Below are positions 1,968-13,537 of a stretch of DNA of 14,466 nucleotides, one piece after another; positions within the stretch are counted from its first letter, which is position 1, and each line of letters opens with the position of its first letter. A program made the position numbers and the translations under genes. The stretch comes from Candidatus Yanofskybacteria bacterium (GTDB lineage: Bacteria > Patescibacteriota > Minisyncoccia > 2-02-FULL-40-12 > GWA2-44-9), in contig JACPNL010000011.1 of the NCBI GenBank assembly GCA_016185505.1, positions 1 to 14,466 of the forward strand, read 5' to 3'. The notes under the pieces were generated by a model. It saw only the letters and a list, made by a program, of their open reading frames with translations. It had not been told where the DNA came from and did no database searches.

Positions 1968-3455
1968 ATGTTCAAAGAAGGATTGTTGGACAAAATTTTA
2001 AGAAATATCAAAAAACTGATACCGAAGTCGGTATTTGATTTTTTTGCGCCGGTTTATCATGCTACTTTAGCTTATGTCGGGGCTTTTTTGTACGGATTTC
2101 CATCACGTTCAATGAAGGTCATCGGTGTGACGGGAACTAAAGGCAAGTCAACGACGGTTTTTTTGATAAGTAAGATTTTGGAGGCGGCAGAATTAACGAC
2201 ATCGGAAGGCCAAAGGACTTCCGATGTCAATGTGGAGGAGCGCCCTCCACAAGGCGGGGTGGCGGCAATCGGGTCTCTCGGATATAAAATAAAAGATAAA
2301 GAATGGCCGAATACTCTGAAAATGACAATGCCCGGCCGGTTCAAATTGCAGAAATTCCTGGCCGAAGCCAAAAGAGCCGGATGCAAGTATGTGGTTCTTG
2401 AAGTGACTTCGGAGGGCATCAAACAAAAGCGCCATATGGGAGTAAAATTTGATTGTGCCGTGTTTACTAATCTGCACGAAGAGCATATTGAAAGTCACGG
2501 TTCTTTTAAAAATTACTATAAAGCCAAGCAGGAATTATTCAAAAAGACCTCAAATATTCACGTAATTAATGCCGATGATCCCCGCGTAGATTTGTTTGGG
2601 AACTTTCCGGCAAAGCATAAGATATTTTATGGATTGGAAAAAGGGGATTTGGTTGCCGGCAAAATTCAGTCCACGGAAAAAGGAACATCATTTGAACTTT
2701 ATGGCACGCGCTTTGACACTCATTTGGCCGGAGAGTTTAATGTTATGAATTGTCTGGCGGCGCTGGCGGTGGGGGCGATGTATAAGATTGATTTGCCCGC
2801 GATGAAACCGGTTTTGGAGTCAATTAAATTTATTCCGGGAAGGATGGAGTTCATACAGCGGGAGCCGTTTGGAGTGGTGGTAGATTATGCGCACACGCCA
2901 GATTCTTTGCGAAGCGTTTATCAAACGCTTCGCAAGAATCTGGCGCAACCAACAACCAACCCCGCACCAAGCTTATCCGCTGACCGCCATTCAGAAAGGG
3001 GGCGGGCTTGGAGCGGGGCAGGCAACCGACAACCAACAACAGGAAAATTGATTTGTGTTCTTGGTGCGGCGGGCGGGGGTAGAGATAAATGGAAAAGGCC
3101 CGAATTCGGAAGAATCGCGTCGGAATACTGCGATGAGATTATTTTGACGAATGAAGACCCCTATGATGAAAATCCCCAAAGCATCATCAAAGATATTGAA
3201 AGGGGATTTTCATCGAAATTTTCAATTTTCAATTTTCAATTTTCAAATAAATCCCAATTACCAAATCACAAAATAATTCTTGACCGTCGTGAGGCAATTC
3301 AAACTGCCTTGACAGATGCCGGGGAAGGTGATACCGTTATTATCACAGGGAAGGGTTCGGAGACGTCAATGGCCGTCGCGGGGGGCAGGAAGCTCCCTTG
3401 GTCGGACAAGGATGTCGTCCGTGAAGCTCTTCGACAACAATCCTCCTGCGCATAA
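1968..3455 (+). CDS. Mur ligase family protein, MurE-like (UDP-N-acetylmuramoyl-tripeptide synthetase-like) lacking the canonical N-terminal domain; contains low-complexity in-frame insertions
   Basis: P-loop GVTGTKGKSTT, central domain VVLEVTSEGIKQKRH ... FTNLHEEHIESHG, MurE-type DYAHTPDSL motif, GAAGGGRDKWKRPEFG, C-terminal ITGKGSE. Only about 50 aa precede the P-loop, against about 110 in MurE. Confidence 0.8.
   Translation: MFKEGLLDKILRNIKKLIPKSVFDFFAPVYHATLAYVGAFLYGFPSRSMKVIGVTGTKGKSTTVFLISKILEAAELTTSEGQRTSDVNVEERPPQGGVAAIGSLGYKIKDKEWPNTLKMTMPGRFKLQKFLAEAKRAGCKYVVLEVTSEGIKQKRHMGVKFDCAVFTNLHEEHIESHGSFKNYYKAKQELFKKTSNIHVINADDPRVDLFGNFPAKHKIFYGLEKGDLVAGKIQSTEKGTSFELYGTRFDTHLAGEFNVMNCLAALAVGAMYKIDLPAMKPVLESIKFIPGRMEFIQREPFGVVVDYAHTPDSLRSVYQTLRKNLAQPTTNPAPSLSADRHSERGRAWSGAGNRQPTTGKLICVLGAAGGGRDKWKRPEFGRIASEYCDEIILTNEDPYDENPQSIIKDIERGFSSKFSIFNFQFSNKSQLPNHKIILDRREAIQTALTDAGEGDTVIITGKGSETSMAVAGGRKLPWSDKDVVREALRQQSSCA
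3217..3244 (+). repeat. 4 x AATTTTC heptamer tandem repeat inside Mur ligase CDS
   Basis: Direct reading: aattttc aattttc aattttc aattttc (encodes FSIFNFQFS). Confidence 0.9.
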
Positions 3456-3482
3456 AGCTACGGAGGACAAAGGAGAGAAGTG

Positions 3483-3866
3483 ATGTTTGAAGTGGTACTC
3501 TTTTTCGTCGTGGGAATTCTTGCGGTCGGTATTGGCGCCGCAATTGCGGTCGCCAATAACGAGGCGGTGTGGCTAGTGGCTAGCGTTATTGGAGCTGCTC
3601 TTCTTGGCATTACTACTTTCGACCTTGCTCCCCGAGCGTTGCCAACTGGAGCTCCGACTACTTCGATTGATGTCGGCGAGTATGCTCTTATGTACGTTGG
3701 TTCGTCCATGGTGGGTCATGTGGATGTGCTGACTATTAAGGATGCCGGAACACCTAGGACTTACTACCGATTTCCGACAGAAGCGTTTGATGGTGATATC
3801 AACATCAAAGCCACAAGACTAATTGTGGTGGAATCCGACGGATTCAAAAAACTGGTTCTGAAATAA
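3483..3866 (+). CDS. Hypothetical membrane protein (two N-terminal TM helices)
   Basis: Strong SD AGGAGAG (3471-3477) before the ATG at 3483 (GTG at 3480). Hydrophobic N-terminus VVLFFVVGILAVGIGAAIAVA ... LVASVIGAALLGI. GC content is higher than in neighbouring genes. Confidence 0.5.
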   Translation: MFEVVLFFVVGILAVGIGAAIAVANNEAVWLVASVIGAALLGITTFDLAPRALPTGAPTTSIDVGEYALMYVGSSMVGHVDVLTIKDAGTPRTYYRFPTEAFDGDINIKATRLIVVESDGFKKLVLK

Positions 3867-3867
3867 C

Positions 3868-3888
3868 GCGGGGTATCACCCCGTTTTA
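3868..3888 (+). terminator. Rho-independent terminator
   Basis: CGGGGT / ACCCCG stem (3869-3883) followed by TTTT. Confidence 0.55.
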
Positions 3889-4040
3889 TGTTGACGGAAA
3901 AGTTAAAAGGCCTATTGTATATTCAGTTGCCTTGACATCGACTGGAGACGGCCATTTCTTCCAACGCTACTTGCGAGGATTCTTCGCTAAAAACAAAGAA
4001 GAACAACCTGAAGAGATTTTATCGCGAAAACTTCCCCGGT

Positions 4041-4595
4041 TTGAAAATTCATCATCTTATACCTCGTAGCCGGGGCGGACAGACAGATTATTTTACTCTT
4101 TTCCCTTGGGATTTTATAAGTCACGATGCTTGGCATCAGCTTTTTTTAAATATGACCATTCAAGAGGTCTGGAATCGATTAGATGAAATTTATGCGGCTA
4201 TTTACTCGGAAGCAGAAATGGTTGTTCCATTTTGGGTGGGGGTCTGTACTCTTTACAAAGTCAGTCCCAAGAAACTCGCCAAATTTGAAGAACAAAAAAG
4301 AGATAAGCTCTCGTGGCCGGTAAGCGTCATTAAACTTCGGGATTTGTGGTTTAAGTGTTTTCGGAGTGATAATCTTGCGGATGCCAGGTCATTATTGTTG
4401 TATATGGCAATGTTTATGTTGTTTGGGTCCAAAATGATTGACCCTGAATCAATAAGCCAAGCTGACGCAGAATCACTGTTATCCCAAATACCTGATTTGC
4501 AGGATTATCAGCGTTGGGCGGTGAGCGTGTGCTTTAATCACGGCGTTAGTTCTATTTTTTCAAAAATCAACGAGTTTTATCTTGGCTCTCTTTAA
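4041..4595 (+). CDS. HNH-nuclease-motif protein (HHLIPRSRGG ... HDAWHQLF); start uncertain (TTG), possibly N-terminally degraded
   Basis: The HH-x-IP-x-S-x-GG plus H-x-AWH-x-LF pattern is typical of a small HNH (His-Me finger) family. The frame is open back to 3936 but has no ATG or GTG, so the TTG at 4041 was used. Confidence 0.4.
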   Translation: MKIHHLIPRSRGGQTDYFTLFPWDFISHDAWHQLFLNMTIQEVWNRLDEIYAAIYSEAEMVVPFWVGVCTLYKVSPKKLAKFEEQKRDKLSWPVSVIKLRDLWFKCFRSDNLADARSLLLYMAMFMLFGSKMIDPESISQADAESLLSQIPDLQDYQRWAVSVCFNHGVSSIFSKINEFYLGSL

Positions 4596-4611
4596 CGAGA
4601 GTTTTTTATTT
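4584..4611 (+). terminator. Rho-independent terminator (stop codon inside hairpin loop)
   Basis: CTCTC / GAGAG stem around the TAA, followed by TTTTTTATTTT. Confidence 0.5.
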
Positions 4612-4641
4612 TCAAGATTTATGTGGTAATATTCATATATT

Positions 4642-5142
4642 ATGGATATCGGGCGGCCACAACCAAATGACGAACCGAAACAGAGCGCAGAATTGTACCC
4701 TGCGGAATTTGCCGTTAGCAAAGTCGAAGCATCGCGGTTGCTTAAAAATTCAGGCCTGCCTTGGCTTTTGATAGTTCTGGTACTGGTACTTTTGGCTTTA
4801 TCTGTAAACATATTTAGACAGCCCGTTGCCTCGGATACGTCCGGTACTATCAGTTCATCTGTCGGGCCGACACCGGCGGTTCAGCCGAGGGTCTATACTG
4901 TTTCTTACAGGAACGGTGTTTTCAGTCCCACGAATCTAAGAATTCACGCCGGCGATACGGTGAGATTCAAGAATGAGAGTATATTTCCCATAAGAATAGT
5001 CGGAGACGATCTGGTCGGTTTCGATAGTATTGGTGACGTGCCCCAAGGAAGTTTTTTTGCTTTTACTTTTGCCGCTAGGGGAATATTCAGCTATCATAAT
5101 GAGAAGAGTCTCGACGAATCAGCTACGATAATAGTTCGATAA
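4642..5142 (+). CDS. Membrane-anchored cupredoxin-like (plastocyanin-fold-like) domain protein, no obvious Cu ligands
   Basis: TM helix LPWLLIVLVLVLLALSV, then a beta-rich domain YTVSYRNGVFSPTNLRIHAGDTVRFKNES...FSYH that resembles cupredoxin_1-like domains. The function call is weak. Confidence 0.35.
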   Translation: MDIGRPQPNDEPKQSAELYPAEFAVSKVEASRLLKNSGLPWLLIVLVLVLLALSVNIFRQPVASDTSGTISSSVGPTPAVQPRVYTVSYRNGVFSPTNLRIHAGDTVRFKNESIFPIRIVGDDLVGFDSIGDVPQGSFFAFTFAARGIFSYHNEKSLDESATIIVR

Positions 5143-5156
5143 TATGCGATACCAAT

Positions 5157-5218
5157 ATACTAATTCATACTAATGATACGAATAGTGTTTCGTTCTTCCA
5201 TTAGTATAATTAGTATGC
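5157..5218. repeat. Long imperfect inverted repeat (arms ATACTAATTCATACTAATG / CATTAGTATAATTAGTAT, 23-nt loop)
   Basis: The right arm (5199-5218) is the reverse complement of the left arm (5157-5175) apart from a one-nucleotide bulge. Each arm is itself a direct repeat of ATACTAAT. Confidence 0.7.
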
Positions 5219-5249
5219 ATTCGTATATTAGCATCGCGATAGTGTTAGC

Positions 5250-5417
5250 ATGAGAAATCTTTTAACCGTACAAATTGAGTCATATCTGGGCGCGGTATTT
5301 ATATCTCTTTTCGCGTTGTTTTTTATCGCGTTGATTTTCATTGTTATGAAAAACTTTGACTCGGAACTTAGCGTTATGCAATCTGAAAACCTCGAAGTTA
5401 AAATCTCTCCACGATGA
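5250..5417 (+). CDS. Putative 55-aa single-TM micro-protein, translationally coupled (ATGA overlap) to downstream gene
   Basis: MRNLLTVQIESYLGAVFISLFALFFIALIFIVMKNFDSELSVMQSENLEVKISPR. Its stop TGA (5415-5417) overlaps the ATG (5414-5416) of the next gene. No SD. Absent from the ORF track because it is short. Confidence 0.3.
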   Translation: MRNLLTVQIESYLGAVFISLFALFFIALIFIVMKNFDSELSVMQSENLEVKISPR

Positions 5418-6247
5418 TTCGATTAGGGCCCTTACTATTTATCAAGGAAGTAGTTCTTTTTGGCCTTACGCTGGCTCTTGGTCTCTATACCGCTTATTAT
5501 TACTCTTTTTACTTTACCGATCTGGTTCAGAATGGAATGGTGAATTTTACGCCGGCTGATCTGATTATTTTGGCTATTTTGTTCGTCGCTATTTTCTTTG
5601 TGGCGCGGCACAAGAGGGTTGCCCGCTTTTCCTTCAGGTTCTTTCTTATATTGATCGTCTTTTCCGGAACTCAAGTTGTGTTGGGCACTATTCTGCCTTC
5701 GCCTTGGGACTTGTTGTTTGCGGTTATCTTTACTTTAATATTCTCTATCGGTATTAATGTGTTGGTTCACAATCTAGGTATTATTCTTGGAATTGCCGGT
5801 ATTGCGGCTGTATTCGGTCTCTCTATTTCAATTGAGTTCGGGCTTGTCCTGTTGGTTGTTCTTTCTTTATATGACATAGTGGCCGTTTATGTGACAAAGC
5901 ACATGGTGACTATGGCCAGAAGTATGGTCGAAGGCGGTGCGGTGTTTGGATTTTTAATTCCGTTTGAGTTCAAAGGATTTTTTTATGGAAGAGATGAGGC
6001 AAAGGCCGGAATAGGGGAGAATTTCATGATACTTGGTTCGGGAGATATCGGATTGCCGCTTATTTTTGCGGTTTCTCTGGTTAGGGTTTCTCTGATATCC
6101 GCGATAATTACGGCCACATTCTCTTTGCTGGGATTATTTATTACTCACCTTCTTTTTATAAACCAAGGACAGCGAAGGGCAATGGCGGCTTTGCCACCGA
6201 TCGCGACACTTACAATAATTGGTTACCTTGTAACCCAATTATTGTAA
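5414..6247 (+). CDS. Polytopic membrane protein, presenilin / signal-peptide-peptidase-like (A22 family-like) intramembrane aspartyl protease candidate
   Basis: About 8 TM segments. Candidate catalytic motifs sit in TM helices: LSLYDIVAVY (YD), ILGSGDIGLPLIF (GxGD) and AALPPIA (PAL-like). Confidence 0.45.
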   Translation: MIRLGPLLFIKEVVLFGLTLALGLYTAYYYSFYFTDLVQNGMVNFTPADLIILAILFVAIFFVARHKRVARFSFRFFLILIVFSGTQVVLGTILPSPWDLLFAVIFTLIFSIGINVLVHNLGIILGIAGIAAVFGLSISIEFGLVLLVVLSLYDIVAVYVTKHMVTMARSMVEGGAVFGFLIPFEFKGFFYGRDEAKAGIGENFMILGSGDIGLPLIFAVSLVRVSLISAIITATFSLLGLFITHLLFINQGQRRAMAALPPIATLTIIGYLVTQLL

Positions 6248-6388
6248 ATTGACCTAATTATACTAATTAACCTAATTATTCTAAATAATGCCCAATACCT
6301 AATCACCAAATGCCTAAAACAGCTTGGTCATTCGGTCATTAGAATTTATTTAGGTCAATTAGATTAATTAGAACAATTAGAATAATTT
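6248..6388. repeat. About 140-bp AT-rich palindromic intergenic element (copy A) built from 9-bp TAATTNNNC units in inverted arms; MITE-like
   Basis: Left arm ttgacc taattatac taattaacc taattattc taaataat. Right arm atttattta ggtcaatta gattaatta gaacaatta gaataatt. Strongly similar to 13350-13495. It directly abuts the ATG at 6389. Confidence 0.7.
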
Positions 6389-7804
6389 ATGAAACTTACT
6401 TTCTATGGTGGTGCTCGCCAAGTGACCGGAGCCAACTACTTGTTGGAGTTGGGCCCCGACGCAAGGTCGGGGTCAACAACCAAGTTGTTGGTTGATTGCG
6501 GGATGTTTCAGGGTTCAAGGTATGCGGAAGACCTGAACTATGAAAAATTTCCATATGATCCGGCGGAGATTAATTTTATTTTTATCACTCATAGTCATAC
6601 CGACCACGCTGGACGCTTGCCCAAGTTGTATAAAGAAGGATTCAGGGGCAAGGTCGTTGCGACAAACGCGACCCTTGATCTTATCAGAAAAGCTCTGCCG
6701 GACAACTTAAGATTGATAGAACAAGAAGCAAAAGATACTGGACGAGAACCACTGTTCTCTCTTGAGAACTTGGAAGGTGTTCTTAATTTGGTTCAGGGAG
6801 TTGATTATGAGGAAAATATTGAATTAGGTGGTGGTCTTGAAGTTAAATTACATGATGCCGGACACATATTGGGTTCTTCCATCGTGGAAATACGATGGAA
6901 GAACAAATCCGAAATCCGAAATCCGAAATCCGAAAATAATTCGAAACATCTTTACTTTACCGGTGATCTGGGGAATCCCCCGACACCCTTATTGAAATCG
7001 CCTTATTACCCCAATGATGCTGATTATGTCGTTATAGAGTCCGCCTACGGTTCAAGAACTCACGAGGATAAGGCCGAAAGAAAGAATATTTTACAGAAGA
7101 TCATAATTGAAACCATCCAAAGAGGTGGTGTGCTGACGATACCTTCGTTCGCGATGGAAAGAACGCAGGAACTTCTCTATGAACTCAATGGTCTGTTCAA
7201 CGACAATAAAATTCCCAAAGTACCCGTTTTTGTCGATTCTCCTCTGGCTACCAATTTGACCGAGGTGTACAGAAAGCATTCGGATTATTTCAATAAAGAA
7301 ACTATGTATATAATTAATTCCGGTGACGATATATTTAATTTTCCCGGGCTAAAATTCACTCGTACCACCGAAGAATCAAAACAGATAAACGATGTTACTC
7401 CGCCGAAGATAATAATTGCCGGCTCGGGAATGTCTACCGGCGGCCGGATATTGCATCACGAAAGGCGTTATCTGCAGGATCCGAATTCCACTATTCTGTT
7501 CATCGGTTATCAAGTAAAAGGTTCTTTGGGCAGGAGAATTTTGGATGAGGAAAAAGAGGTCAAAATATTCGGCGAAAAAGTTACCGTGAACTGCAAAGTG
7601 GAGGCGATAGGAGGATACTCCGCTCACGCCGACAGCGAAGGGCTTTTGGAATGGGTCAAAACCGCGAACAGCGAAGGTAAATTAAAAAAGGTATTTGTGG
7701 TGCAAGGCGAAGAGGATTCCTCATTGGCTCTCGCAAGAAAAATAGAAAGAGCGCTGGAAATTGATGCGGTGGTGCCGAAGCAAGGGGAAGGGTTCGAGTT
7801 GTAG
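6389..7804 (+). CDS. MBL-fold metallo-hydrolase, beta-CASP RNA-metabolising family (RNase J / CPSF-like ribonuclease)
   Basis: HSHTDHAG (HxHxDH), LVDCGMFQG, a beta-CASP region and C-terminal GGYSAHAD. 471 aa. Confidence 0.8.
   Translation: MKLTFYGGARQVTGANYLLELGPDARSGSTTKLLVDCGMFQGSRYAEDLNYEKFPYDPAEINFIFITHSHTDHAGRLPKLYKEGFRGKVVATNATLDLIRKALPDNLRLIEQEAKDTGREPLFSLENLEGVLNLVQGVDYEENIELGGGLEVKLHDAGHILGSSIVEIRWKNKSEIRNPKSENNSKHLYFTGDLGNPPTPLLKSPYYPNDADYVVIESAYGSRTHEDKAERKNILQKIIIETIQRGGVLTIPSFAMERTQELLYELNGLFNDNKIPKVPVFVDSPLATNLTEVYRKHSDYFNKETMYIINSGDDIFNFPGLKFTRTTEESKQINDVTPPKIIIAGSGMSTGGRILHHERRYLQDPNSTILFIGYQVKGSLGRRILDEEKEVKIFGEKVTVNCKVEAIGGYSAHADSEGLLEWVKTANSEGKLKKVFVVQGEEDSSLALARKIERALEIDAVVPKQGEGFEL
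6905..6932 (+). repeat. 4 x AAATCCG heptamer tandem repeat inside MBL-fold ribonuclease CDS
   Basis: aaatccg x4 (encodes SEIRNPKSE). Confidence 0.9.
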
Positions 7805-8032
7805 AGCGAAACTATCAAATAATTTTTTACGCCTTACGCTCCATTAACAAATCTTGCAATAATTTATCATTGTTCAGACAAAAATTTAGCACCCGTTCCT
7901 CCCTTCGGGATTTTCCGGCTAAATTTTTGGAAGATTACCTGAACAATTTCTAAATTATCTTGGATTTGTGATAAAGGAGCGTAAACGCTAGAAAAATTAC
8001 TTAACAGTTTCGCTCTTTGGATGCTTTGATTT
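7803..8032. repeat. Long palindromic element C1: about 40-bp inverted arms (GAGCGAAACTNNCAAATAATTTTTTANGCCTTNCGCTCC) enclosing a palindromic cargo capped by a UUCG hairpin
   Basis: Left arm 7804-7842 and right arm 7976-8015 are near reverse complements. The inner pairs ATTAACAAATCTTGCAATAATTTATCATTGTTCAG / CTGAACAATTTCTAAATTATCTTGGATTTGTGAT and AAAAATTTAGC / GCTAAATTTTT flank TCCCTTCGGGA. The start overlaps the TAG stop of the MBL gene. A second copy lies at 9695-10109. Confidence 0.7.
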
Positions 8033-9631: not shown

Positions 9632-9694
9632 TTGGTCAAGCCAGCTGAGCTGGCTCAACCCCACTAAATTTTGAGAAAAGGCATACTCTTGCAG

Positions 9695-10109
9695 TAGAGC
9701 GAAACTGCCAAATAATTTTTTAGCCTTCCGCTCCAGGAGAGCAGGATTCAAACTCCCATCGTCTTGAGAGACCCAAAAATGAGATGATTTCTTTGGTGTG
9801 ACGACGAAGATGTAGTTTAACACTACTTCGAGGAGGCACAACAAAGAAAGCGTCCATTTTTGGGCTCCCCCTTGGGGCGGGGCGGACTTACTTATCTGCT
9901 TCGTTGTCCAGATTCCTTCGGAATCGAGGATCCTCGATTGCTTCGCAATCGGGACTCGTCGCTTACGTACCGTTAAGGTACGCATCACTCCTCGCGCCTC
10001 GCATATAAGCAAGTCCGCTCCCGCTCAATTGATGCGAGTTTGAATCCTGCTCTCCTACGTCAACGCTAAAAAATTATCTGACCAGTTTCACTCTCTGGAT
10101 GCTTTGATT
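9695..10109. repeat. Palindromic element C2: same outer arms as C1, carrying a different, nested cargo
   Basis: TAGAGCGAAACTGCCAAATAATTTTTTAGCCTTCCGCTCC (9695-9734) matches the C1 left arm. ACGCTAAAAAATTATCTGACCAGTTTCACTC TCTGGATGCTTTGATT (10062-10109) matches the C1 right arm and tail. Confidence 0.7.
9735..10056. mobile_element. Nested 322-bp element with perfect 21-bp terminal inverted repeats (AGGAGAGCAGGATTCAAACTC ... GAGTTTGAATCCTGCTCTCCT), highly structured interior; MITE-like or structured ncRNA
   Basis: Perfect TIR 9735-9755 / 10036-10056. The interior holds several perfect hairpins: ATTCC-TTCG-GGAAT, CGATTGC-TTCG-GCAATCG, GTACC-GTTAA-GGTAC and the CGAGGATCCTCG palindrome. No ORF. 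Confidence 0.55.
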
Positions 10110-10324
10110 CAATCGATGATGTTGGAAAGAAACAAACTATTCATTCTCAAAATTTAGAGGGGTCTCGCTCCTCAACGCTAATTTTTCCGTGTTTTCCGAT
10201 TTTTCAGCGCTTCTGTGGTTAAAATTACCCAACGGCCTCGCTCCTCGGACGTTTTTATTTAATCGACGCAACAAGGGGTCTCGCTCCTTTGTGTTGTTGT
10301 GCTTGGTATTTTTGATGGGGCAGG

Positions 10325-13349: not shown

Positions 13350-13495
13350 CCCAATTATTCTAATTATACTAATTATTCTAATTACTCTAAATAATGACTA
13401 ATCCCCAATCATTAAATGACCAAATCGATTTAGTCATTGAGTCGTTGGGATTTATTTAGGTCAATTAGGTTAATTAGAATAATTAGGTTAATTTA
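13350..13495. repeat. Copy B of the about 140-bp TAATTNNNC-unit palindromic element (see 6248-6388)
   Basis: ctaattatactaattattctaattactctaaataatg ... atttatttaggtcaattaggttaattagaataattaggttaatt. The central part contains the near-perfect palindrome AATGACCAAATCGATTTAGTCATT. Confidence 0.7.
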
Positions 13496-13537
13496 TTGCC
13501 CTGTTTGGTTCCTGTGCTTTGTGTTTTAGCTATGTAA

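Follow-up and report, generated by a model that had tools for sequence, protein, structure and literature searches.

A presenilin-type intramembrane protease of a Yanofskybacteria bacterium and the truncated small membrane protein gene that overlaps its start

The window analysed here is a stretch of 14 466 nucleotides from a Candidatus Yanofskybacteria genome (GenBank assembly GCA_016185505.1, contig JACPNL010000011.1). The reading that best accounts for the data, to which a probability of about 0.6 was assigned, is that it encodes a stand-alone presenilin/PSH-type protease and, directly upstream in a collinear string of genes, a genuine, truncated gene for a small membrane protein that is neither an obligate subunit nor a dedicated substrate of the protease. 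Across related genomes the small gene tracks the gene for a cupredoxin-like protein, and it is probably not a dedicated partner of the protease, as a first-pass annotation had proposed from the overlap of the two genes.

The protease gene (HYX22_01730) lies at 5414..6247 on the forward strand and encodes 277 aa with nine predicted transmembrane (TM) helices. The presenilin/signal peptide peptidase (SPP)-like identity suggested in the first-pass annotation was borne out, with a match to Pfam PF06550 over residues 74-276 (65 bits, the cut-off being 23.9; E 1.1e-17) and to the PDB entry 4hyc of PSH (E 4.9e-12), in which the YD, GxGD and PPL motifs were aligned. Both aspartate motifs named previously were found, LYD at residues 152-154 (5867-5875) and GSGD at G208-S-G-D211 in TM7 (6035..6046, forward strand). 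Within the former, the first catalytic Asp motif Y153-D154 in TM6 (5870..5875, forward strand) aligns with the YD of PSH, while the second aligns with its GMGD. The PAL-equivalent, A259-L-P-P-I263 in TM9 (6188..6202, forward strand), lies in an invariant MAALPPIAT and aligns with GLPPL of PSH; it represents the PSH-type variant P-P-(L/I) in place of a literal PAL. Across 24 homologues Y153, D154, G208-D211 and L260-I263 were invariant, and catalysis would be expected to depend on Asp154 and Asp211.

The AlphaFold2 (AF2) model of the protease (pLDDT 84.3, pTM 0.83) contained nine TM helices, at residues 4-33, 47-65, 67-90, 98-112, 116-137, 140-161, 209-221, 227-250 and 260-276. In a Foldseek search of the PDB with this model the top 25 matches were all PSH, SPPL2a or presenilin-1, with TM-scores of up to 0.72. 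Sequence and predicted fold together identify the 277-aa protein as a GxGD protease of the A22 presenilin/SPP superfamily. The charges flanking its helices suggest that the N terminus is inside and that the loop joining TM2 to TM3, RHKRVARFSFR, faces the cytoplasm, which would give the protein a presenilin-like orientation. At least 466 clusters of homologues were found, some of which are named at NCBI as 'presenilin family intramembrane aspartyl protease [Patescibacteria group bacterium]' and some of which also match PF04258. The protease is genuine and occurs widely in one lineage of the candidate phyla radiation (CPR), and the description of A22 proteases as rare in bacteria was overstated for this lineage. 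A literature search on presenilin or intramembrane aspartyl proteases in Patescibacteria, the candidate phyla radiation or Parcubacteria returned nothing relevant.

The micro-ORF upstream (HYX22_01725, 5250..5417, forward strand; hypothetical protein in the NCBI annotation) encodes 55 aa, MRNLLTVQIESYLGAVFISLFALFFIALIFIVMKNFDSELSVMQSENLEVKISPR, consisting of an N-terminal motif (M-R-N-x-L-T-x-Q-I-E-S-x-L-G), one TM helix and a short tail. The hydrophobic stretch reported earlier is present and corresponds to the TM helix at residues 13-33 (5286-5348). By alignment the ORF belongs, as a form truncated at the C terminus, to a family of single-pass membrane proteins of ~92 aa, whose consensus is M-x-N-P-L-T-x-Q-V-E-S-x-L-G, a TM helix, and then ...E-R-x-L-I-x-x-W...Y-P-x-K-P-W. 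Residues 1-50 of the window ORF, which take in its N-terminal motif and TM helix, align with other members, among which L5, T6, Q8, E10, S11, L13, G14, F24, F25, L28, F30, I31 and N35 are invariant; the C-terminal two-helix domain ending Y-P-x-(K/R)-P-W is deleted, and the ORF stops at residue 55. In the full-length member P0121 AF2 predicted these C-terminal helices at residues 55-68 and 77-84.

The family, which is uncharacterised, is confined to Yanofskybacteria and close relatives; 107 close clusters were found, as were ~50 clusters at 50% identity among 1.84e9 representatives, and variants of 114-118 aa occur at loci L042, L044 and L045. No Pfam family was matched by the small protein or its full-length homologues at E<=10, where DUF1146, OST_P1 and TarH appeared as sub-threshold noise, and Foldseek found no match to the small-protein model in the PDB below E 7.8. 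Flanking charges point to an N-in/C-out topology. The TM helix was also considered as an unusually conserved element; this was rejected because its mean column identity (~0.45) was that of the plain anchor of the cupredoxin-like protein, and with it went an argument for specific docking within the membrane.

Several lines of evidence place the micro-ORF beyond a chance reading frame. Its conservation, which the first-pass annotation had named as a check, was found at 28 of 40 related genome loci, where homologues occupy the equivalent position; substitutions at codon positions 1, 2 and 3 numbered 6118, 3235 and 10139, an excess at the third position; and dN/dS against the nearest relatives was 0.10-0.16 over codons 2-45, with dS saturated. 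These sequence comparisons show a genuine gene under purifying selection. The selection on the retained N-terminal motif and TM helix indicates that this part of the truncated protein has a membrane-embedded function, possibly one that involves the protease.

The stop codon of the micro-ORF and the start codon of the protease gene share an ATGA at 5414..5417 on the forward strand (junction CACGATGATTC; ATG 5414-5416, TGA 5415-5417), which confirms the 4-nt overlap described in the first-pass annotation, and the two genes also overlap by 4 nt at L001, L014, L022 and L050. The overlap is not special to this pair: in relatives 4-nt overlaps are also found at the protease/beta-CASP and the cupredoxin/small-gene junctions, with both the small-gene/protease and protease/beta-CASP junctions overlapping by 4 nt at L050, and the cupredoxin and small genes overlapping at L011 and L026. 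The protease start does lack a Shine-Dalgarno (SD) sequence, as was stated, with no AGGAGG-like motif within 25 nt upstream of 5414 (best match 3/6). The translational coupling proposed there does not follow from this, since 15 of the 17 ORF starts in the window are without an SD-like motif and the absence of one is therefore no sign of coupling. Overlaps of 4 nt and starts without SD are the norm in the gene string and coupling is generic. A consensus scan for promoters and terminators gave 6 promoter-like sites against 4.9 expected.

The gene string runs in the order FemAB, Mur ligase, further genes, cupredoxin-like anchored protein, small protein, protease and beta-CASP RNase; a region of ~8 kb is collinear in 41 loci, and the genes of the string are presumably co-transcribed. 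The cupredoxin-like protein (HYX22_01720, 4642..5142, forward strand) has 166 aa and an N-terminal TM helix at residues 39-58 (4756-4815). It matches Pfam PF13473 weakly (E 0.011), and its homologues reach PF13473 and carry the JGI label 'plastocyanin'. A role as a copper protein was rejected, as the second His is unconserved and the lack of any Cys leaves no type-1 copper site. The next gene after the protease, which in relatives often overlaps it, encodes a beta-CASP metallo-beta-lactamase ribonuclease of 471 aa (6389..7804, forward strand). No nicastrin or APH-1 homologues were found among the neighbouring genes, and the window contains no tRNA gene and no Rfam family.

Two of the spacers in the string are occupied by repeat elements. 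An AT-rich hairpin element at 5146..5237, an inverted repeat with 38-nt arms that are 84% complementary, takes up the 107 nt that separate the micro-ORF from the cupredoxin gene; RNA folding of 5143-5249 gave -29.8 kcal/mol (z=-4.15), and 6 ATACTAAT units were observed against 0.33 expected. A palindromic element of 144 nt with 44-nt arms (6247..6390; fold z=-5.69) fills the spacer between the protease and beta-CASP genes and has a second copy at 13353-13496, the two being 81% identical. Palindromic intergenic repeat elements of this kind form a family.

The distribution of the genes among relatives bears on the relationship of the small protein to its neighbours. Among the 40 protease loci, 12 have the cupredoxin and protease genes but no small gene; they are spread over about 8-10 separate branches. 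Conversely, the small gene is kept at full length without an adjacent protease in at least three lineages: with the order cupredoxin, small gene, beta-CASP at L051/L052 and L054; with HtrA, cupredoxin, small gene, beta-propeller at L046/L047; and beside Kelch and PPIase genes at L042 and L045. Since each of these loci is a short contig or a single region, the same genomes could carry a protease elsewhere. The small and protease genes have thus been lost independently, which argues against the small protein being an obligate subunit or dedicated substrate. The cupredoxin gene lies upstream of the protease in all loci with enough sequence, and it also precedes the small gene at loci that have no protease. 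In partial Mantel tests controlling for beta-CASP distance, which covered only 16 loci and use a method known to be liberal, the small protein co-varied with the cupredoxin-like protein (r=0.37, p=0.006); with the protease no residual co-variation was left (r=-0.13, p=0.76). On these comparisons no neighbour of the small gene is as constant as the cupredoxin-like protein, which is also the only one to co-evolve with it.

It is possible, though we would not bet on it, that the small protein and the cupredoxin-like anchored protein form an extracytoplasmic or membrane pair in the envelope, to which the protease is a mere neighbour in the string. In addition to the co-variation, this would agree with the position of the cupredoxin gene directly upstream of the small gene in Yanofskybacteria loci, with the same order at L046/L047, L048, L049, L050, L051/L052, L053 and L054 (loci chosen by their small protein, in which the protease is absent or the context different), with the overlap of the two genes noted above, and with the slower evolution of the small protein relative to the protease in full-length lineages (lower dN). 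Against it, nearly every locus has the cupredoxin gene regardless of the small gene, the 12 loci above having cupredoxin and protease only, and the 114-118-aa variants have no cupredoxin neighbour. In the window itself the hairpin spacer divides the two genes, and the clade to which it belongs has lost the presumed extracytoplasmic C-terminal domain while its cupredoxin protein is intact.

More doubtful is the proposal that the small protein is a dedicated partner of the protease, either a native substrate, one end of which would be set free by regulated intramembrane proteolysis, or a small regulatory or accessory subunit, made in stoichiometric amounts through translational coupling. In its favour is adjacency: the small gene was directly upstream of the protease in 28 of the 28 genome loci with a small gene and, with the window included, 15 of 29 cases had the two genes overlapping or <=6 nt apart. 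This arrangement survives at 32-39% protease identity (L043, L049, L050) and where a GIY-YIG gene has been inserted between the cupredoxin and small genes (L010, L021), and such persistence is compatible with a functional link. Purifying selection on the N-terminal motif and TM helix after loss of the C-terminal domain would also fit, and a substrate encoded next door is plausible given that both the natural substrates and the partners of PSH-type proteases from prokaryotes figure as unknown in PMC9263693. The proposal is a poor fit to the independent losses, to the lack of residual co-variation and to the generic nature of overlaps and SD-less starts in this genome. Moreover, the small protein resembles neither PEN-2 nor any Pfam family, the conservation of its TM helix does not exceed that of the plain anchor of the cupredoxin protein, and an N-in/C-out protein facing a protease of presenilin-like orientation would, judging by flanking charges, be in a non-canonical orientation for a presenilin substrate. 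A link between the two proteins is possible, and they may interact physically.

Very improbably, the 55-codon ORF is a functionless, decaying pseudogene of the 92-aa gene that overlaps the protease start by accident: in the protease tree the truncated clade of the window, L001 and L002 does lie between L005, with a full-length small gene, and the sister pair L003/L004, which has lost it, its small-protein dN is above that of the protease (0.18-0.19 against 0.12-0.14, the reverse of the full-length lineages) and the tail beyond codon 45 is unconserved, but the truncated frame is intact in these three diverged genomes and in the metagenomic forms P0252 and P0276, the motif and helix are kept, and dN/dS over codons 2-45 is low despite saturated dS.

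The preferred reading, a stand-alone protease beside a truncated small gene, may be outlined as follows. By homology, the protease would work within the membrane, where Asp154 and Asp211 would serve to cut signal-peptide remnants or the TM helices of proteins that span it once. Deletion of the C-terminal domain of the small protein would have moved its stop codon onto the protease start and so produced the ATGA overlap, and its steadier association is with the cupredoxin-like membrane protein encoded upstream. A broader proposal, which we consider rather improbable, is that the cupredoxin-like protein, the small protein and the protease make up a single module of the envelope in Yanofskybacteria and the Patescibacteria related to them, with one or both of the single-pass proteins as native substrates or regulators of the protease. 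If it were true, candidate natural substrates of a presenilin-type protease from a prokaryote would be at hand for the first time, and the truncated micro-protein of the window would be a 'pre-shed' stub under constitutive processing.

Proteases of the presenilin type matter to medicine, and PSH, their homologues in prokaryotes, are used as structural models. A single-pass protein encoded beside a bacterial PSH homologue, and presumably co-transcribed with it, would be a cheap and testable candidate substrate. The comparative evidence does not single out a protease partner in the micro-protein, and the outcome is mostly a refinement of annotation. Its by-products are an uncharacterised family of small membrane proteins tied to a cupredoxin-like envelope protein and a family of palindromic intergenic repeat elements.

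In known bacterial regulated intramembrane proteolysis, RseA acts with DegS and RseP, and BofA and SpoIVFA with SpoIVFB; RseP- and SpoIVFB-type systems use site-2 metalloproteases and no aspartyl proteases. In such modules, too, the gene for a small single-pass membrane protein is close to that for an intramembrane protease, and at L046/L047 the cupredoxin and small-gene pair adjoins an HtrA/DegS-like protease (Trypsin and PDZ), which recalls the RseA-DegS modules. The window locus differs from them in having no sequence similarity, sigma factor or anti-sigma domain. The eukaryotic enzymes signal peptide peptidase and SPPL2a (PF04258, PDB 9k92) belong to the same superfamily as the window protease, SPPL2a with a TM-score of 0.72; SPP is inverted, whereas flanking charges give the window protease a presenilin-like orientation, and the latter has no luminal or PA domains. 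By analogy with these enzymes, the window protease could plausibly serve a housekeeping function, clearing away what remains of signal peptides or anchors. In gamma-secretase (presenilin with PEN-2, APH-1 and nicastrin) the presenilin-1 chains resemble the fold of the window protease (TM-score 0.65-0.72), and the partnership with PEN-2 (~100 aa) was the analogy behind the earlier proposal of a small partner. The small protein of the window differs from PEN-2 in its sequence, its absence from many protease loci and its lack of co-variation with the protease.

The best match in both sequence and structure was PSH/MCMJR1 of Methanoculleus marisnigri (4hyc, 4hyg, 4y6k; NF041679), which is a single polypeptide active without cofactors in vitro (PMC2947513). 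The window protease is bacterial (Patescibacteria) and PSH archaeal, their identity is 22-25%, GSGD replaces GMGD, and against the archaeal PSH equivalog NCBIfam NF041679 the window protease is homologous but scores 74.4 bits, below the cut-off of 125. The two proteins share the GxGD di-aspartyl type, a length of ~280-300 aa and nine TM helices, with YD in TM6, GxGD in TM7 and P-P-(L/I) in TM9.

The window is one contig (14,466 bp) from a Candidatus Yanofskybacteria MAG. Its ORF at 5414–6247 (+), encoding 277 aa and identical to HYX22_01730, scored 65 bits on the Pfam model for SPP and presenilin aspartyl proteases (PF06550; cut-off 23.9). Its sole PDB sequence match was the archaeal presenilin homologue PSH (4hyc, E 4.9e-12), and the YD, GxGD and P-P-(L/I) motifs of the two proteins coincide in the alignment. 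The motifs named by the first-pass annotation were located at aa 152–154 (LYD) and aa 208–211 (GSGD); Y153, D154, G208-S-G-D211 and M257–T265 (MAALPPIAT) were invariant in 24 homologues (51–83% identity). An AlphaFold2 model built from this alignment (pLDDT 84.3, pTM 0.83) contained nine long helices, and its best 25 Foldseek matches in the PDB were all PSH, SPPL2a or presenilin-1 (TM-score ≤0.72), unrelated ABC transporters ranking below them with probabilities <0.12. Membership of the presenilin/SPP family, as originally proposed, is therefore solid. The supposed rarity of such proteases in bacteria does not apply to this lineage, as at least 466 homologue clusters were found, some already named 'presenilin family intramembrane aspartyl protease [Patescibacteria group bacterium]' by NCBI. 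The 277-aa protein adds a new bacterial (CPR) member to the known A22 PSH-like proteases.

The 55-aa micro-ORF (5250–5417, +), which carries the hydrophobic stretch reported initially, is annotated by NCBI as hypothetical protein HYX22_01725. At the junction, CACGATGATTC, its TGA stop (5415–5417) overlaps the ATG start of the protease (5414–5416), and no SD-like motif was present upstream of 5414; the first-pass description of the ORF pair was accurate. Forty-one genome loci were retrieved via the protease, 40 of them informative upstream (L041 starts inside the protease gene), and a homologue of the micro-ORF lay directly upstream of the protease in 28 of the 40. These homologues are usually 91–98 aa long, with the consensus M-K-N-P-L-T-x-Q-V-E-S-x-L-G, TM helix, K-N-F-N-S-D and a linker, followed by T-E-R-x-L-I-x-x-W-x-x-x-N-x-I-x-x-P-x-G-x-G-Y-R-Y-x-I-x-x-Y-P-x-K-P-W. 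Versions of 52–55 aa, ending just past the linker, occur in one clade (the window, L001 and L002) and separately in L038, and truncated forms were also found among metagenomic representatives (P0252, P0276). Differences at codon positions 1/2/3 of the small gene (6118/3235/10139) were dominated by the third position. The dN/dS of the window's micro-ORF against L001, L002 and L005 (Nei–Gojobori, codons 2–45) was 0.10–0.16, similar to that of the protease (0.09–0.14); small-protein dN somewhat exceeded protease dN in the truncated clade and fell below it in lineages with the full-length form. The micro-ORF is a genuine, if truncated, gene. AlphaFold2 predicted one long helix (4–47) and two short helices (55–68 and 77–84) for a full-length member of the family, a model with no structural match in the PDB. 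The family had no Pfam or NCBIfam match, and since only ∼50 members were recovered when its profile was run against 1.84 billion cluster representatives, it is lineage-restricted.

The surrounding region was collinear in all 41 loci, the shared order being FemAB-like, (GNAT, TrpR-like), Mur ligase, (HNH-like), cupredoxin-like anchored protein, the small gene where present, protease, beta-CASP RNase and, further on, LOG-like. Adjacency of the small gene and the protease is consequently less informative. Four-nucleotide overlaps are generic within this gene string: L050 has them at both the small gene/protease and the protease/beta-CASP junctions, and in L011 and L026 the small gene overlaps the cupredoxin gene. 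An SD-like motif was absent at 15 of the 17 ORF starts in the window, which further reduces what adjacency can tell. The beta-CASP start often overlaps the protease stop in relatives; the window's beta-CASP ribonuclease (6389–7804) scored 273 bits on the aCPSF1 model and 404 bits on the NCBIfam type VII CRISPR-associated Cas14 model, far under the cut-off of 800, and identity as a CRISPR protein was rejected in favour of generic beta-CASP similarity. A 184-aa ORF between the Mur ligase and cupredoxin genes (4041–4595, predicted TTG start, marginal HNH motif, E 0.1) varies in presence among related loci and diverges fast (31–65% identity). Inverted repeats of 31 nt (1365–1395 and 1868–1898, 94% complementary) lie on either side of a Trp-repressor-like ORF (1417–1854; PF01371, E 2e-16), whose patchy presence among related loci (L002, L017, L028, L029) suggests that it is a mobile or variable cassette.

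AT-rich palindromic elements lie on both sides of the micro-ORF/protease pair. A 144-nt element with 44-nt arms at 6247–6390 forms a long hairpin (RNA fold z-score −5.69) and has a second, 81% identical hairpin copy at 13353–13496; a shorter relative with 38-nt arms lies at 5146–5237 (z-score −4.15). Their building blocks are CTAATTA units recurring with a 9-nt period (10 found, 2.2 expected), an arm fragment occupies the same protease/beta-CASP spacer in L022 (4965–4996), and none matched an Rfam family. Possible identities are MITE/REP-like elements or structures that mark transcript boundaries. Elsewhere in the window, a 52-nt direct repeat has three intergenic copies (7980–8031, 10058–10109 and 10208–10259; 62–83% identity) and related 25–29-nt repeats (7801–7829, 9694–9722); these stretches contained neither a tRNA gene nor an Rfam family.

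Of the small gene's neighbours, the cupredoxin-like gene (4642–5142 in the window) is the most constant. The domain of its membrane-anchored product, GVFSPTNLRIHAGDTVRFKNE...GFDS.GD.PQGS.F.FTF, is highly conserved. With neither a Cys nor a conserved second His, the protein is a cupredoxin fold that lacks a type-1 copper site. In partial Mantel tests over 16 loci, with beta-CASP distance controlled for as a proxy for phylogeny, the small protein co-varied with the cupredoxin domain (r = 0.37, p = 0.006) and not with the protease (r = −0.13, p = 0.76), and protease against cupredoxin gave r = −0.04; this is suggestive only. A partnership between the small and cupredoxin-like proteins, which is compatible with our main reading, is a tentative possibility.

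The first-pass annotation had regarded the micro-ORF product as a dedicated partner of the protease. The protease family and the conservation of the micro-ORF stood; dedication did not fare as well, and a dedicated substrate or regulator now seems rather unlikely. The adjacency does hold at deep divergence: among loci sampled through divergent small-protein members instead of the protease, L043, L049 and L050 still have a protease downstream (32–39% identity to that of the window). It also outlasts insertion of a GIY-YIG nuclease-like ORF between the cupredoxin and small genes in two separate relatives (L010, 1339–1863; L021, 1907–2425), where the small gene remains 1–2 nt from the protease start, and the N-terminal motif and TM helix are still under selection after loss of the C-terminal domain. 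However, that helix shows no greater conservation than the cupredoxin anchor, overlaps and missing SD-like motifs are generic here, and the small gene is absent from 12 of the 40 protease loci, spread over ∼8–10 separate branches of a neighbour-joining protease tree. In most of these 12 the cupredoxin gene directly abuts the protease, longer spacers being kept in L004 (which has an assembly gap there), L032 and L033. Around the window the tree reads as a decay series, from the full gene in L005 through the truncated window, L001 and L002 to loss in L003 and L004.

Conversely, the small gene occurs without an adjacent protease. L051/L052 and L054 run from Mur ligase to cupredoxin, small gene and beta-CASP with no protease gene in between, and the non-collinear L046/L047 have FtsEX, GNAT, TPR, HtrA-like protease, cupredoxin, small gene and beta-propeller protein. 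In the latter (3320–6347) the HtrA-like Trypsin+PDZ gene and the cupredoxin gene share a 4-nt overlap and the beta-propeller protein (349 aa) is membrane-anchored, an envelope-proteolysis context without a presenilin-type gene. Variants of 114–118 aa have surface-protein or Wzy_C genes on one side and Kelch or PPIase genes on the other, and in L048 and L053 the contig ends after cupredoxin and small gene. It is unlikely that the single-pass proteins encoded alongside the protease are its clients; the idea is retained because a literature search found no paper linking presenilin-type proteases with CPR or Patescibacteria and because prokaryotic homologues are listed as having unknown natural substrates (PMC9263693). 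It is very improbable that the truncated micro-ORF, with its protease-like dN/dS, is a dead remnant of the 92-aa gene.

We favour, with a probability of roughly 0.6, a protease that would act alone as a PSH-type enzyme, beside a micro-ORF encoding a reduced, still-functional membrane micro-protein. The overlap with the protease start would have arisen when a deletion removed the 3′ part of the small gene, in a genome that is compact and poor in SD motifs, and the small protein would be neither an obligate subunit nor an exclusive substrate. Flanking charges suggest an N-in/C-out topology for the small protein and a cytoplasmic basic loop (RHKRVARFSFR, TM2–TM3) in the protease, consistent with a presenilin-like orientation. 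An analogy with gamma-secretase, whose small subunit is PEN-2, was rejected: the small protein has no homology to PEN-2, is encoded by a dispensable gene and shows no co-variation with the protease. Archaeal PSH is a stand-alone enzyme in vitro (PMC2947513); the 277-aa protein scored 74 bits on the NCBIfam PSH model, under the equivalog cut-off of 125, and by that threshold is a relative of archaeal PSH rather than its equivalog.
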